Source: Patescibacteria group bacterium
GTDB lineage: Bacteria > Patescibacteriota > Minisyncoccia > UBA6257 > 2-01-FULL-56-20
Direction of reading: 5' to 3'
DNA length: 64,000 nt
NCBI GenBank assembly: GCA_018971305.1
Contig: JAGXBC010000004.1
Location: 4,028-68,027, forward strand
Part shown: piece after piece, positions 2,542 through 32,730 of the stretch
How the letters are laid out: each line of letters opens with the position of its first letter
Numbering within the stretch: the stretch's first letter is position 1
Program-made: the position numbers and the translations under genes
The notes under the pieces: model-generated
Database searches by the model: none
Seen by the model: the letters and a program-made list of their open reading frames with translations, nothing else
What the model was told of the DNA's origin: nothing

Positions 2542-3819
2542 ATGGCGAAATTCGGCAGAAGAACAAAAAAACTTATCAAACTTATCGGCCCGGGGCTCGT
2601 GACCGGAGCGGCGGACGACGATCCGTCCGGAATCGCTACCTACACGCAAACAGGAGCGCAATTCGGCTACGGACAGCTCTGGACAGTCCCCTTTATCCTG
2701 CCCCTAATGACCGCAGTCCAAGAGGCCTGCGCGAGAATAGGCGCAGTCACGGGCAAAGGCATCGCCGCCGTTATTAAGGAACATTACAATAAAAAAATTC
2801 TTTATGGCGCGCTTGGATTGATATTGATAGCCAACACCATAAACATCGGCGCCGACCTTGGCGCGATGGGAGCCGCCGCGCGGCTTATCATTCCCCTTCC
2901 GCTCGGAATACTTACTCTCATTTTCACAGCCGCCATCCTGATATTGGAAGTATTTACCTCTTACAAAACCTACGCCAAAATACTCAAATGGCTGGCGCTC
3001 GCTTTATTCTCTTATGTGATAACCGTTTTTCTTGTGCACGAACCGTGGCTCGCGCTTTTGAAGGCGACCTTTATTCCGCACATTGAGTGGAACTTTACTT
3101 TTCTCTTTATAATCACCGGAGTTATCGGTACGACAATTTCTCCCTATATGTTTTTTTGGGAAGCATCTGAGGAGGTTGAGGAGGAAGGAAGAAGGCATCT
3201 TATCCTCAACGGCAAGCCCAAAATAACCAGATCGTTTATCCGCTCGCTCCGCTGGGATAATTTCTTGGGAATGCTTTCGTCGCAAGCAGCTACCTGGTGC
3301 ATTATAGTGGTCGCCGGCACGATTCTTAACGCCAACGGTATCACAAACGTTACGTCCGCGGCCGAAGCGGCAAAGGCATTGGAACCGCTTGTATTAACAT
3401 TCCCCTACGCCGGATTTTTGGCAAAATTTATCTTTGCCGCAGGCATTATTGGCCTCGGCCTGCTTGCCGTTCCAGTGCTCTCTGCTTCTGCTTCTTACGC
3501 GCTGTCGGAAACATTAAATTGGCATGAGGGATTAAATCTGAAGTTTAAAAAAGCTCACGGATTTTACGGAGTTATAACCATAGCCACCATCCTCGGATTA
3601 TTTATTAATTTTGTCGGAATCAATCCCATCCAAGCACTAGTTGTCACGGCGGTTGTGAATGGCATCATTTCGGTACCCCTTATTTTCCTTATCGCGAGAA
3701 TTGCCGGCAGTGAAAAAATAATGGGCGAATATAAAAGCGGTCCACTGTCCCAAACCCTTGTCTGGATTACTTTCGCGGTTATGGCCATAGCGGTCGTTGC
3801 GATGTTTATTTCTTTATAG
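2542..3819 (+). CDS. mntH: NRAMP family divalent metal (Mn2+/Fe2+) transporter.
   Basis: GPGLVTGAADDDPSGIATY is the NRAMP consensus. About 11 predicted TM segments. AT-rich promoter region upstream. Confidence 0.85.
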   Translation: MAKFGRRTKKLIKLIGPGLVTGAADDDPSGIATYTQTGAQFGYGQLWTVPFILPLMTAVQEACARIGAVTGKGIAAVIKEHYNKKILYGALGLILIANTINIGADLGAMGAAARLIIPLPLGILTLIFTAAILILEVFTSYKTYAKILKWLALALFSYVITVFLVHEPWLALLKATFIPHIEWNFTFLFIITGVIGTTISPYMFFWEASEEVEEEGRRHLILNGKPKITRSFIRSLRWDNFLGMLSSQAATWCIIVVAGTILNANGITNVTSAAEAAKALEPLVLTFPYAGFLAKFIFAAGIIGLGLLAVPVLSASASYALSETLNWHEGLNLKFKKAHGFYGVITIATILGLFINFVGINPIQALVVTAVVNGIISVPLIFLIARIAGSEKIMGEYKSGPLSQTLVWITFAVMAIAVVAMFISL

Positions 3820-3861: not shown

Positions 3862-5037
3862 TTATAGCGCGTAGGTGCTTGTTATTTTTGCGAACGCATC
3901 CTTGTCTCCCGAATCTATCGGCTTGCCTGCAGGCGGATTAATGGATAACGGATTTATGAGCGTACCGAACTTCCTCACTTCATAATGCAGGTGCGGGCCG
4001 GTAGCAAGTCCTGTGGCGCCAACATAGCCGATTACCTGCCCTTGCTTTACGTGCGCGCCGATCTTGATTCCTTTCGCGAAACTGGAGAAATGCCCGTAGG
4101 TCGTCGTGTATTCTTCGTTATAGCGAATAACAACTTTGTTCCCGTATTCCCCTCTCCAGCCGGCGTCTATCACAGTACCGTCACCGATAGAGACAACAGG
4201 CGTGCCGTAATTCGCGGCAAAATCAACCGCACGATGCGGTTCAACGGCACCGTTCACAGGATCAATCCGCCGGTAGGTGAAATAGGTACTGATGTATTTA
4301 TATTGCAGAGGAAACTTCAAGAATATTTTCTGCACGGAGTTGCCATTCTCGTCGTAATACCCTTCCGTAGTTTTGTCGGACTTAAAATAATAGGCGTAAT
4401 AGGGGTCGCCGCTATTTATAAATTTGGCAGCAAGAATTTTCCCGGGCATCTTGTAAACACCATTCAGGTAGCGGGCTTCGTAAATCATCTCAAATGAATC
4501 CCCTTTCTGAACGCTGAAAGCAAAATCCACCTGCCAGGCAAAAATTTCCGAAAGCAGCACGGCGAGGCGCGGGTCTTTGTTCTCATCAATTAGCGTCTGA
4601 TAAACAGATGAATCAATGGTCCCTTTTATAGTTTCAATTTTAATGTCGTAAGGAATATCCTTAACTGCGGACCGCCAATCGCCGCTATCAGTATTTTGAA
4701 TTTCAAGATTTTGATCGGCGTTGACGTTATAGACTATCCTCTTTACCTCATTAGTTGCGGCATCCGTGAATAATGACAGGACGTGTCCGGCCGTCAGCTT
4801 GGAAGTATCGTAAACATTATCCATAGACGCCACGATAGACGACCTGGTAGTTGTCGTAAGCGACAAATCATTCAAAAGAGCTTCAAAGGAGTAGCCGCTC
4901 GGTATCATTTTGTCTACCTCTCTAAGCGACTCTCTCTTCTCTGGAAGCAGAACTTTGCCTGAGTGACCTCCATGTACAACAATAAGAGCCGCCAAAGCGA
5001 CGGCAACGGCAAACACGGCGAATGTTACCCTGTTCAT
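3862..5037 (-). CDS. M23 family metallopeptidase (LytM-like) with N-terminal membrane anchor.
   Basis: C-terminal GTPVVSIGDGTVIDAGW...GNKVVIRY...TTYGHFSSF...GATGLATGPHLHYEV (HxxxD/HxH M23 motifs). N-terminal TM. Confidence 0.8.
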   Translation of the reverse strand: MNRVTFAVFAVAVALAALIVVHGGHSGKVLLPEKRESLREVDKMIPSGYSFEALLNDLSLTTTTRSSIVASMDNVYDTSKLTAGHVLSLFTDAATNEVKRIVYNVNADQNLEIQNTDSGDWRSAVKDIPYDIKIETIKGTIDSSVYQTLIDENKDPRLAVLLSEIFAWQVDFAFSVQKGDSFEMIYEARYLNGVYKMPGKILAAKFINSGDPYYAYYFKSDKTTEGYYDENGNSVQKIFLKFPLQYKYISTYFTYRRIDPVNGAVEPHRAVDFAANYGTPVVSIGDGTVIDAGWRGEYGNKVVIRYNEEYTTTYGHFSSFAKGIKIGAHVKQGQVIGYVGATGLATGPHLHYEVRKFGTLINPLSINPPAGKPIDSGDKDAFAKITSTYAL

Positions 5038-29107: not shown

Positions 29108-30016
29108 CTAATTCTTCAGATATCTCCTTACTGCCACCAAACTGGATAACGTTCCGATACCAACCCCAAAAATTAACTGATATAGAAAAAGTTTGCCTAA
29201 ATTTTCATAAAAATATTGGAAAACGTCCAATCCGGGTATAAAAACTTTGAGATAAGGTGAAACAAAATAAATTATAGGAGCAGCGATTATCATACTCAAC
29301 ACCGCTGCCAAAATCCCAGAGATTATTCCCTCAACCACCAATGGTCCGCGAACGAAACTATTGGAAGCGCCAACTACGCGCATGACTCCTATCTCTTCTC
29401 TGCCGGAATAAATAGCCAGGCGAATAGTATTGAAAACCACGAGTCCAGCCACAAGCGCAAGAACAATCGTCAAAACCCAGCCACCGCGGTTTACGCCCTT
29501 CACAATGGCCGTGAGGCGATCTATAACGACCTGATTCTTTGCATAACTTACAGAGTCAATATATTGAGACAAATTGGGCGCGTCTAAATAATTGGCTATA
29601 TCCGCATACTGGTCGGGCTGCTGGGCTTTGATGTTAAGAGATGCCTCAAGCGGGTTGCTATTCAACTCATTTATCCCCTGGCTGATAGTCGCATCATCCT
29701 TGTGCGCCTCCTTAAAAATTGACAAGGCCTGATCGCTGGAAATATATTCAACGCTTTTGACCTCGGATAAATTTTCCAGTGATTGTTTAACATTTAAAAC
29801 CTGGTCTTCCGAAGTTGTTGTTTTAAAATAAACACTAATATCTATCTTGTCTTGTATGGAAGAAGCAGCATGGTCAGCGACAACTCCGAATATAATCAAT
29901 CCGACAAAAACCAAAAGAGCCAAAATCATAATGGCTACCGTAGCCGCGGAAAGCCAGCCGTGCCGCCAAAAATTCTTGAAACCAAAATGGGTTATACGCG
30001 AAAGAACTGTGAACAT
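29108..30016 (-). CDS. ftsX: Cell division ABC transporter permease FtsX.
   Basis: Four-TM FtsX topology with a large extracellular loop. Immediately downstream of ftsE. Confidence 0.85.
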   Translation of the reverse strand: MFTVLSRITHFGFKNFWRHGWLSAATVAIMILALLVFVGLIIFGVVADHAASSIQDKIDISVYFKTTTSEDQVLNVKQSLENLSEVKSVEYISSDQALSIFKEAHKDDATISQGINELNSNPLEASLNIKAQQPDQYADIANYLDAPNLSQYIDSVSYAKNQVVIDRLTAIVKGVNRGGWVLTIVLALVAGLVVFNTIRLAIYSGREEIGVMRVVGASNSFVRGPLVVEGIISGILAAVLSMIIAAPIIYFVSPYLKVFIPGLDVFQYFYENLGKLFLYQLIFGVGIGTLSSLVAVRRYLKN

Positions 30017-30030
30017 TCTATTTAGTTATA

Positions 30031-30720
30031 TTATACCAATATGTATTTTCCTTTTTCCTCGTCGCGGATTATGCGGCCGCGATCAAGAGTAATAACTCTC
30101 TTCTCTAAAGTATTAATGACTTCTTTGTCGTGCGTCGCCAAAAGCAAAGTAGTGCCAAGCTGATTGATTTTCTCCAGAAGTTTGATGATTTCGTATGTGT
30201 TTAATGGATCCAGATTGCCAGTCGGCTCGTCGGCGATGATGATTTCCGGCCTGTGAATCATAGCGCGGGCGATCGCCACTCTTTGCCGCTCTCCGCCCGA
30301 AAGCTCGTGCGGAAAATTTCCGGATTTTTCACTCAAGCCCACCATGTCTAAAACCTGGGGAACGAGTTCCACGATATCTCTCTGCGGCCTGCCGGCAACC
30401 TCAAGGGCAAAAGCAACGTTTTCATAGGCCGTTTTCATCGGCAAAAGGCGGAAGTCTTGGAAAATAACGCCGACGTGCCTACGAAAAGCCGGCAATTCTC
30501 CGTCTTTGAGCTTATTAACCTCATATTGGCTAAAAAAAACTCTGCCTTTAGTTGGTTTTTCTTCACCTATTAATAGCTTGATAACGGTTGATTTTCCGGC
30601 TCCCGAACGCCCTGTGAGAGAAACAAATTCTCCCGGTTGGACCTCAAAATCAAGGTCTTCCAGAGCCGCGGAGTGGCTGTTATAAATTTTTGATACCCCT
30701 TGAAAAACTACCATAGCCAT
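30031..30720 (-). CDS. ftsE: Cell division ATP-binding protein FtsE.
   Basis: Walker A GRSGAGKST, LSGGERQRVAIARA, IIADEPTGNLD. 229 aa. Confidence 0.9.
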   Translation of the reverse strand: MAMVVFQGVSKIYNSHSAALEDLDFEVQPGEFVSLTGRSGAGKSTVIKLLIGEEKPTKGRVFFSQYEVNKLKDGELPAFRRHVGVIFQDFRLLPMKTAYENVAFALEVAGRPQRDIVELVPQVLDMVGLSEKSGNFPHELSGGERQRVAIARAMIHRPEIIIADEPTGNLDPLNTYEIIKLLEKINQLGTTLLLATHDKEVINTLEKRVITLDRGRIIRDEEKGKYILV

Positions 30721-30770: not shown

Positions 30771-31806
30771 TTACTTCAAAGATTCTATCTCCGCCTCAAT
30801 GAATATGTCCAAATCTCCGGCCAATACTCCCACAACATTGGAAGTTTCCGCCTTCGTACGATGATCCTTGACCATTTGATAGGGATTAAGCACATAAGAG
30901 CGAAGCTGATTCCCCCACTCCGGCTTAACTTTAACGCGAAGATTACCCAACTCCTTAACTTGATTACGTTCCATAAGCTGGAATAATTTCGCCTTGAGGT
31001 GCCTGAGGGCCACTTCGCGATTCTGCGACTGCGAACGCTCGGCGCGGGCGGAAACTGCTATTCCCGTGGGAAGATGCACCACTCGCACCGCCGTCTCCAC
31101 CTTATTGACGTTCTGCCCGCCCGGACCTCCGGCCCTGGAAAACTCCCACCTCAAATCAGCATCGGGGATTATTAGTTTCGATTCTACAAGTGCCGGCAAA
31201 TCGGGGACAACTTCGACGAGAGCGAACGATGTGTGCCGCAATTGTTTAGAAGAAAATGGCGAGATGCGCACGAGGCGGTGCACACCCGATTCTCTCCTCA
31301 GATATCCATAGGCGAAAGAGCCGCGGATTTCGAAAGTACGCGATCGCGGACTGTCATCTATAGCGACAACTTTCCATTTTTGCCGTGCCGCGTATCCCTC
31401 ATACATCTCTGCAAGCATGCGCGCCCAGTCTTCGGCGTCGTCTCCCCCGGCACCAGGATAAACAGAGAGTACGGCCGCCTGCTTGTCGTATGGTCCGCTA
31501 AAAAGAGTCGCGAGTTCCAATTCGCGGAATTTCTTTTTTACTTCAAAAAATTTATTTTCGTCGAAAACATTCTCCAGCTCGGCCACGCCGCTCTCGATTA
31601 AATAGAATTTATCCGTCAGGTCGCGCAGTTCTCCCAGAGTCTTTATTTTTTCGTCGGCGGCAAAACGATCAGTCCAAAAACCTGGCGACGACATTTCACC
31701 CTCCAGTTTTTCTATCTCTTTCTTTTTAGTCTCTACGTCAAAGCCGCCCGCCCAAACGGCGGGCTTCGGATTCAAGTTCGGTTAATTGTTCCCTATGATC
31801 ATCCAT
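30771..31806 (-). CDS. prfB: Peptide chain release factor 2 with a programmed +1 ribosomal frameshift. Frame-0 start ATG 31806-31804 encodes 22 aa to CTT TGA C at 31743-31737; the +1 frame continues to the stop at 30771.
   Basis: GGQ motif ([11 protein letters not shown]) and SPF tripeptide (RISPFSS), so RF2. Frame 0 encodes [22 protein letters not shown], then CUU UGA C, identical to the E. coli RF2 autoregulatory site. The +1 frame continues [13 protein letters not shown], aligning with E. coli Leu25/Asp26. The track ORF starts artificially at a TTG. Confidence 0.9.
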
Positions 31807-32136
31807 TTATAGTTTTTTATTTGGTTTATGGGATTTTTGTTTCTTGGCTTCTTGCGCCAGTTCTTCGCGAAGATAAACTTTCGCCAAATATCTTAAGTCT
31901 TCCTCGCTGGCATTTCGTGGATTGCTCCGCCGTGCACGCTCCATCGCCCTATACCACGCTGTATTCTCTTCCGATTCTTTATATTTTATCTTTTTTGGAT
32001 TCCTAAAACATTCCGGACAGTTTCCGGGACTATCGAATTCGTTACCACAACGATTACAAGAAGTTATTGTATGTATTTCCGGCCCCTTGGATTCTGGCTG
32101 AAAATTGGATTCCGATTGTTCCGGCATCAGAACCAT
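31807..32136 (-). CDS. Hypothetical zinc-ribbon protein (109 aa). Stop TAA directly abuts the prfB ATG.
   Basis: CNRCG...CPEC zinc-ribbon Cys pairs and a Lys/Arg-rich C-terminus. The TAAATG junction with prfB suggests co-transcription. Confidence 0.4.
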   Translation of the reverse strand: MVLMPEQSESNFQPESKGPEIHTITSCNRCGNEFDSPGNCPECFRNPKKIKYKESEENTAWYRAMERARRSNPRNASEEDLRYLAKVYLREELAQEAKKQKSHKPNKKL

Positions 32137-32518: not shown

Positions 32519-32658
32519 TACATAGACTGTATCATAAAACTATTGTGCGCGGGAGTTTCGCATGCCCGATAGTCAGTTGGGCAGATACGCTTCCAGTTCA
32601 AATCCGGGAAAACAGGATGCAACTAAATTGTTCCAATGGAACAGTTTGGTTGCACATG

Positions 32659-32730
32659 AGCCACCTCCCGGATTTGAACCGGGGACCTTCGCTTTACGAA
32701 AGCGCTGCTCTACCGCTGAGCTAAGGTGGC
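32659..32730 (-). tRNA. tRNA-Thr (anticodon CGU), no encoded CCA.
   Basis: Minus strand: GCCACCT-TA-GCTC-AGCGGTA-GAGC-A-GCGCT-TTCGTAA-AGCGA-AGGTC-CCCGG-TTCAAAT-CCGGG-AGGTGGC-T. Cloverleaf fits, with U33 and A37 and anticodon CGT. Confidence 0.85.

Follow-up and report, generated by a model that had tools for sequence, protein, structure and literature searches.

What stimulates programmed +1 frameshifting in a prfB gene whose G-rich upstream run does not behave as a Shine-Dalgarno (SD) element? The question is raised by a contig of a Patescibacteria group bacterium (JAGXBC010000004.1, assembly GCA_018971305.1), of which we analyzed a stretch of 64,000 nucleotides (nt; positions 4,028 to 68,027 of the forward strand), hereafter the window. 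On its minus strand lies prfB, the gene for release factor 2 (RF2), which an earlier reading of the letters alone (the sequence-only reading) had interpreted as carrying the classic CUU UGA C shift site with an SD-like stretch just upstream. The prfB frameshift itself is a textbook feature, and what is added here is the probable stimulator, a covarying hairpin whose 3' arm is the G-rich run. We favor, with a probability of roughly 0.7, an RF2-regulated +1 frameshift in which this hairpin, formed within the mRNA, stands in for the SD:anti-SD duplex and stimulates the slip.

The prfB gene and its shift site

The gene, from a Paceibacteria/Liptonbacteria-like genome, is a genuine release factor 2 that needs a +1 frameshift. 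A short frame-0 leader of 22 codons runs into the in-frame TGA of the shift site (coordinates in Table 1), and when T31740 is omitted the reading becomes GAC GTA GAG ACT AAA, that is DVETK..., and stays open down to the TAA at the end of the gene. Leader and body joined make a 344-residue product that contains the GGQ motif and the SPF tripeptide, the determinant of RF2 stop-codon specificity, both of which the sequence-only reading had placed in the +1 body. This product scores 351.6 bits against TIGR00020 (prfB), over model positions 2-352, compared with 170-176 bits against the RF1 (prfA) models; its two Pfam domains, PCRF (1.8e-38) and RF-1 (8.8e-34), both exceed their gathering scores, and its best solved structural relatives are all RF2 chains (E 4e-76 to 2e-60). 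The frame-0 leader aligns with the N-termini of solved RF2 chains and with TIGR00020 from model position 2, and the alignment runs through the junction without a break at the frame change (query grLDvEtK against GSLDLESK in PDB 9fy1_8). Aligned to RF2 references, the joined product thus matches across the junction, which upholds the claim of a CUU UGA C shift site in prfB. The heptamer CTTTGAC occurs 12 times in the window when both strands are counted, so that the motif alone is no evidence and its position at the RF2 frame junction is what decides.

The sequence-only reading was also right that the list of open reading frames (ORFs) had missed the true N-terminus, and the public annotation shares the fault. 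Both the ORF list and the public protein P0001 (334 aa, Patescibacteria group bacterium, named "PCRF domain-containing protein") begin at TTG 31775; their first 12 residues, namely TTG read as Met and 11 residues of the +1-frame reading of the hairpin region, are therefore out of frame and not RF2 sequence. The annotation is corrected accordingly: the public protein begins at a false start and lacks the real N-terminus. The joined RF2 is a short one that scores under the curated TIGR00020 cut-off of 370 bits; its domain 1 shows a gap of 14 residues against 9fy1_8, and these features probably explain why the public name is generic and the frameshift exception was not applied.

To place the shift site among its relatives, we compiled 80 loci from species-representative genomes, supplemented by a metagenome scan; individual loci are cited by their L numbers. 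At the homologous codon, 36 Patescibacteria loci of the 80 carry CTTTGA, and the metagenome scan, for which the query was the RF2 of L043, their most divergent member at 43% identity, returned 20 further loci. The resulting 56 related cassettes become 57 with that of the window; the window's lineage comprises 37 of them and a second lineage the other 20. CTTTGA is invariant in all 56 relatives, where it is followed by C in 48, G in three, A in three and T in two, and it is flanked by homologous frame-0 leaders of 20-24 aa and intact +1 bodies.

These relatives bear directly on whether the site could be an artefact, with an extra T introduced by sequencing or assembly, or the relic of a decaying gene. 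The site is a short homopolymer, and one relative from a long-read metagenome-assembled genome (L002) reads CTTGAC, both of which lend the idea some initial appeal. The sequence-only reading had itself named an extra T at 31740-31743 in independent reads, or the absence of the frame-0 peptide from homologs, as the findings that would tell against it. Two independent short-read Logan assemblies (SRR32006850 and SRR32006840) are instead identical to the window, with 0 mismatches over 1,805 bp including the T-run, and the leader peptide is present in the related loci. The two identical assemblies and the recurrence of CTTTGA at the same codon in 56 loci exclude a sequencing error, the joined protein is a full-length RF2, and we assign an artefact or pseudogene a negligible probability.

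The upstream hairpin and its proposed role

The G-rich run upstream of CUU is the 3' arm of a hairpin that folds with -17.2 kcal/mol and is the sole element common to the minimum free energy and centroid folds of its 171-nt context. C31746, with which the E-site codon CGG begins, forms its last pair, so that the stem ends at -3 and leaves 2 nt before CUU. The hairpin folds in 57/57 cassettes, with a mean of -14.5 kcal/mol compared with -4.15 +/- 3.1 kcal/mol for 16,416 other 30-nt segments of the same genes. A stem of -10 kcal/mol or lower ending exactly at -3 is present in 44/57 cassettes and in 0.84% of the background segments; irrespective of energy, 46/57 stems end there. The base at -2 is G in all cassettes, and the E-site codons of the 56 relatives are CGT (29), CGG (23), TGT (two), CGC (one) and TGG (one), with CGN Arg accounting for 53. 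Loci L010, L030 and L031 have a 3-nt loop, which brings the 5' arm two bases closer and leaves the 3' arm where it is. Searches of Rfam 15 at gathering and permissive thresholds yielded nothing beyond chance matches of 10-13 bits, where the gathering scores are 41-86.

The hairpin is maintained by selection, as seen in its covariation, its fixed position and its divergent sequences. In an ungapped alignment of the window's lineage, 92.1% of stem cells are paired, compared with 33-59% when the partners are slid by one to three columns. Four of the seven stem pairs have changed on both sides, in 18 cells, and 0/500 shuffles reach either that cell count or the covariation score, with the caveat that related sequences can beat every shuffle even without structure; the count of four such pairs is itself reached by 42/500 shuffles and is not significant alone. 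Compensatory changes include Arg CGC>CGG with Gly GGC>Ala GCC, and Ala GCC>GCU with Gly GGG>Glu GAG, while the codon third positions of the loop and spacer change without restraint. A synonymous change on one side of the stem is coupled to an amino-acid change on the other, which makes selection on the peptide hard to invoke. Moreover, the stem variants are dispersed over a neighbor-joining RF2 tree (one protein, poorly resolved), which points to several independent switches.

The second lineage reaches the same position with unrelated stems. Most carry GGTCCG/CGGACC, extended in some to GGUCCGC/GCGGACC or GGUCCGAA/UUCGGACC; L111 has UCCGCC/GGCGGA, and in L085 and L086 the arms are CCAUUAC/GUAAUGG, rich in AU. 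Of the 20 stems, 13 finish at -3 and six at -4, and that of L111 finishes at -5. A covariance model of the first lineage recovered cassettes of the second but aligned them in the wrong register (77.7% paired cells), because the 5' arm of the second lineage lies one base further out, and was not used as a test.

The sequence-only reading had taken the G-rich GGGCGG for an SD-like stretch such as the mechanism requires. The stretch is present; its SD-like function did not hold up. Assuming a canonical anti-SD, since the window holds no rRNA gene, the 16 nt before CUU pair with it at -6.3 kcal/mol with internal mismatches, and the 37 cassettes of the window's lineage average -5.7 kcal/mol, weaker than shuffles of the same 16-mers (-6.9); the E. 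coli site gives -10.7 kcal/mol. Under the same assumption, no conserved internal SD about 3 nt upstream of CUU was found across the cassettes, and the SD reading of the run was rejected. Nor is such an element a strict requirement of prfB frameshifting (PMC10798248).

A cassette of the E. coli type would have the run GGGCGGGCGG pair with the 16S anti-SD, the resulting duplex would stimulate the shift, and the complementary upstream sequence would be incidental or would merely modulate access to the run. The run at -10 to -1 does overlap the E. coli SD position, some pairing is possible (as strong as -10.2 kcal/mol in L033), and GGAGG is used at some gene starts of the lineage. Yet relatives carry GGCGAGC, GCCGGGC, CGGACC or GUAAUGG at this position, arms without SD character, and an rRNA partner leaves the arm-to-arm covariation inexplicable; with stems of -11 to -17.5 kcal/mol, the intramolecular fold would also outcompete anti-SD pairing. 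The comparative data have thus largely refuted the classic SD cassette, which we regard as very improbable.

How the hairpin could stimulate the shift can be laid out in the terms of the E. coli site. After 22 codons are translated, the leucyl-tRNA would sit on CUU in the P site with UGA in the A site. When RF2 is plentiful, termination would follow after 22 residues; when it is scarce, the peptidyl-tRNA would slip from CUU to UUU, GAC (Asp) would be read and full-length RF2 would be made. The GC-rich hairpin of 6-8 bp would refold behind the paused ribosome, and with CUU in the P site its 3' arm would lie at -9 to -3, the position of the E. coli SD:anti-SD helix (-9 to -4) plus one base of the E-site codon. 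There it may destabilize the E-site tRNA or strain P-site pairing, either of which would favor the +1 slip. We infer from these comparisons that frameshifting occurs, that it is sensitive to RF2 and that the hairpin raises its efficiency; the autoregulation of the locus by RF2, which the sequence-only reading took as confirmed, likewise seems probable from the sequence. In a reporter design, AGGGGGUAU is the sequence named as the replacement for the hairpin.

The hairpin could instead be real and selected for a purpose other than stimulating frameshifting, which we consider unlikely but the most serious alternative. It might shield the short 5' end of the mRNA against decay, slow trailing ribosomes to its own pace or stop them, pause RNA polymerase, or prevent -1 slippage or internal initiation at the site. 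Frameshifting without a known stimulator is documented (PMC10798248), -1 slippage is also attenuated by upstream hairpins (PMC6321510), ribosome collisions reportedly alter prfB frameshifting (PMC6815119), and a cyanobacterial structure 5' of CUU UGA has been labeled a 'pausing structure', without a test (PMC12873609). Such roles sit less easily with a 3' edge that is fixed 2 nt from CUU despite unrelated stems and varied loop lengths, since a fixed edge points to a function sensed by the ribosome while it stands at the shift site. The hairpin was also not among the terminator-like sites, lacks a T-tract (its tail is GGCTTTGAC) and was rejected as a terminator.

Genes without the shift speak on both sides. 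Two single-ORF relatives retain a stem without a frameshift: L002 (3025-3068), which reads CTT GAC and whose hairpin is identical to that of its neighbor L009, and L048 (~2867-2902), which reads GTT TTG AAT. Both resemble one-base deletions in the slippery run and would be either very recent losses of the frameshift or (homopolymer) assembly errors. The older single-ORF relatives, by contrast, have weak or no stems: L035, also of Patescibacteria, retains a degraded stem of -8.8 kcal/mol, and the Parcubacteria L040 (~3025-3060) and L041 (~2975-3010) have none. The last two carry a fossil in-frame AGGAG-TGG-CTT-GAT/GCT, which suggests that an SD-type site was once present elsewhere in the phylum. 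Across 26 single-ORF RF2 genes, the homologous 30 nt fold at a mean of -6.4 kcal/mol and 0/26 have a stem ending at -3. The RF2 genes of six loci (L042, L044, L045, L046, L049 and L055) lack approximately the first 25 residues and have no frameshift site; they begin right after the apparent 3' end of a tRNA gene (GGTTCGATCC).

Several points weigh against the hairpin as stimulator of the shift. SD-less prfB frameshifts at about 7-9% in F. johnsoniae without a known stimulator (PMC10798248), so that the hairpin may not be needed, and a stem might be unable to form as near as -3 while the ribosome holds the E-site codon. The stem core of the second lineage is invariant and its covariation weak (13/500 shuffles reach the count of both-side-changed cells); this lineage therefore counts for conserved position and pairing, not for covariation. 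The anti-SD is canonical only by inference from the enrichment of GGAGG at gene starts. Most of the single-ORF controls are Actinomycetota, which confounds their contrast with the frameshifting genes by phylogeny, and the hairpins kept by L002 and L048 are stable (-14.1 and -11.3 kcal/mol). Collectively, the comparative data point to an ordinary prfB frameshift with an apparently undescribed variant of stimulator. We lean, by a narrower measure, toward a broader proposal: that in a large clade of Patescibacteria the rRNA-dependent SD:anti-SD stimulator has been replaced by a self-contained mRNA hairpin, which fills the place of that helix on the 30S platform and extends into the E-site codon, and that this is the first 5' hairpin in nature to stimulate a programmed +1 frameshift in bacteria.

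Stop codons, gene starts and neighboring genes

The sequence-only reading held that UGA serves as a stop in this lineage, and the window agrees. Its 63 ORFs of at least 120 codons cover 87% of the sequence and end in TAA (42), TAG (12) or TGA (nine). The 11,313 codons of 26 long genes include no in-frame TGA, and the other two frames contain 235 and 281, a count that is partly circular because the ORFs are defined by standard stops; the coding density and the long uninterrupted genes nonetheless make TGA unlikely as a sense codon. Only one of the nine genuine TGA stops is followed by C, whereas the TGA of the frameshift site has a C after it here and in 48/56 relatives. The rarity of TGAC at genuine stops is consistent with avoidance of a weak termination context.

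Most of the 63 long ORFs have no SD. GGAGG occurs within 20 nt upstream of the start in six (0.9 expected), and some of these starts, for example 18233, sit where the preceding ORF abuts or overlaps. Many ATGs have a TATAAT-like box 5-12 nt upstream, as at the minus-strand starts 34173, 40316, 61690 and 30016; boxes this near to the ATG suggest leaderless or very short-leader mRNAs.

The ORF upstream of prfB, which had no NCBIfam match, ends in a TAA that abuts the prfB ATG (TAAATG), a junction that suggests translational coupling of the two genes. The remaining neighbors are listed in Table 1.

Table 1. Coordinates of prfB, its frameshift cassette and adjacent genes in the window.
Feature	Position	Strand	Details
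Frame-0 leader ORF of prfB	31738..31806	minus	ATG 31806-31804, 22 sense codons, in-frame TGA 31740-31738
Shift heptamer CTT TGA C	31737..31743	minus	CTT 31743-31741, TGA 31740-31738, C 31737
Parts of the shift site	31737..31743	minus	P-site Leu CUU, slippery U, RF2-read stop, weak-context C
+1-frame RF2 body	30771..31739	minus	GAC (Asp) 31739-31737 to TAA 30773-30771
Hairpin GCCCGCC-GUUUG-GGCGGGC	31746..31764	minus	5' arm 31764-31758, loop 31757-31753, 3' arm 31752-31746
Spacer GG between stem and CUU	31744..31745	minus	bases 2-3 of E-site Arg codon CGG 31746-31744
Spurious start TTG	31773..31775	minus	chosen by the ORF list and public annotation; not the real start
SPF tripeptide	31262-31254	minus	residue 182 of the joined protein
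GGQ catalytic motif	31121-31113	minus	residue 229 of the joined protein
109-aa ORF with CxxC...CxxC	31807..32136	minus	upstream of prfB; called as a gene in independent assemblies
ftsE	30031-30720	minus	downstream of prfB; TIGR02673 274.3 bits, cut-off 264.85
ftsX	29108-30016	minus	downstream of prfB; FtsX models 198.6 and 182.9 bits, below cut-offs
tRNA-Thr(CGU)	32658-32730	minus	only RNA gene in the window; upstream of the prfB-ftsE-ftsX run

Comparison with known systems

The Patescibacteria cassette shares with that of E. coli (AGGGGG-UAU-CUU-UGA-C) the gene, the N-terminal location (codon 22/23 here, 25/26 in E. coli), the CUU U slippery run, the RF2-specific UGA, the weak-context C, the Leu-Asp junction and a duplex-forming element at -9 to about -3. 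The two differ in the nature of that duplex, which in E. coli is formed between the SD and 16S rRNA, whereas here, where no SD is conserved, the mRNA pairs with itself. Moreover, the spacer is 2 nt rather than 3, so that the E-site codon contributes its first base to the helix, and that codon is CGN Arg instead of UAU Tyr.

Large surveys have described the range of prfB sites in other bacteria. A premature stop in prfB was found in 64% of 12,753 genomes, in a study that calls the SD-like AGGGGG hyper-conserved and mentions neither hairpins nor Patescibacteria (PMC12421855). Naeem et al. (2024), sampling RefSeq complete genomes, reported loss of the SD from many clades and frameshifting that can go on without it (PMC10798248). 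Neither survey sampled this phylum. Similarly to the Patescibacteria loci, the SD-less sites of Winogradskyella and other clades in that study keep CUU UGA C, have a degenerate SD and belong to genomes with few SDs; they differ in that no replacement element was reported, and Patescibacteria are not mentioned. In the library that we searched, no literature was found linking prfB or RF2 frameshifting with the candidate phyla radiation (CPR) or Patescibacteria.

A natural structure in a comparable place is known from Cyanobacteria, where a 2026 screen listed a conserved structure 5' of CUU UGA in prfB, K02836_upstream.h1_1, with one covarying pair (PMC12873609). Among our loci, the cyanobacterial L047, L050, L057, L058 and L061 have the hairpin CCTGGG-TAAAA-CC(C/T)AGG within 30 nt before CTTTGA, in agreement with the structure from that screen. 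Both groups thus have a hairpin just upstream of the shift site that was found by comparative genomics. The cyanobacterial stem ends at -6, overlaps a residual SD-like AGGAG/AGGAC and is followed by a UAU spacer, unlike the Patescibacteria stem, which extends to -3, lacks an SD and has compensatory changes at several pairs.

Engineered hairpins offer a functional precedent. Upstream refolding hairpins have been built as imitations of the internal SD duplex, reportedly also in a 2013 study by Cho and colleagues. Working with 70S ribosomes, Huang, Cho and Chang (2018) placed a GC-rich hairpin against a CGC E-site codon and obtained +1 frameshifting at CUUUGA at ~60% of the SD effect; stimulation was seen only without RF2, was reduced when the stem was destabilized, and was described by the authors as functional mimicry of the SD duplex (PMC6321510). 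Work cited in the same study indicates that a duplex prolonged into the E site makes the shift more efficient and lets the E-site tRNA leave faster (PMC6321510). The engineered and the natural hairpins share a stable GC-rich stem beside the E site, 5' of CUUUGA, and a CGN E-site codon. They differ in that the former are synthetic 12-bp stems in reporters read by E. coli ribosomes, while the latter is predicted as a natural stem of 6-8 bp in the native prfB of an uncultivated lineage. Given this precedent (PMC6321510), the Patescibacteria hairpin would be a natural substitute for the SD:anti-SD helix, that is, a natural counterpart of the engineered 'SD-duplex mimicry', possibly tied to the low usage of SDs and the leaderless-like starts of these genomes. 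If the hairpin does stimulate the shift, what the ribosome senses would be a helix beside the E site and not pairing with rRNA as such, and these cassettes would provide a natural system in which to study how upstream duplexes push ribosomes forward. It would then also become easier to detect prfB frameshifts automatically in CPR genomes, which neither detectors based on the SD nor the curated RF2 cut-off can handle.

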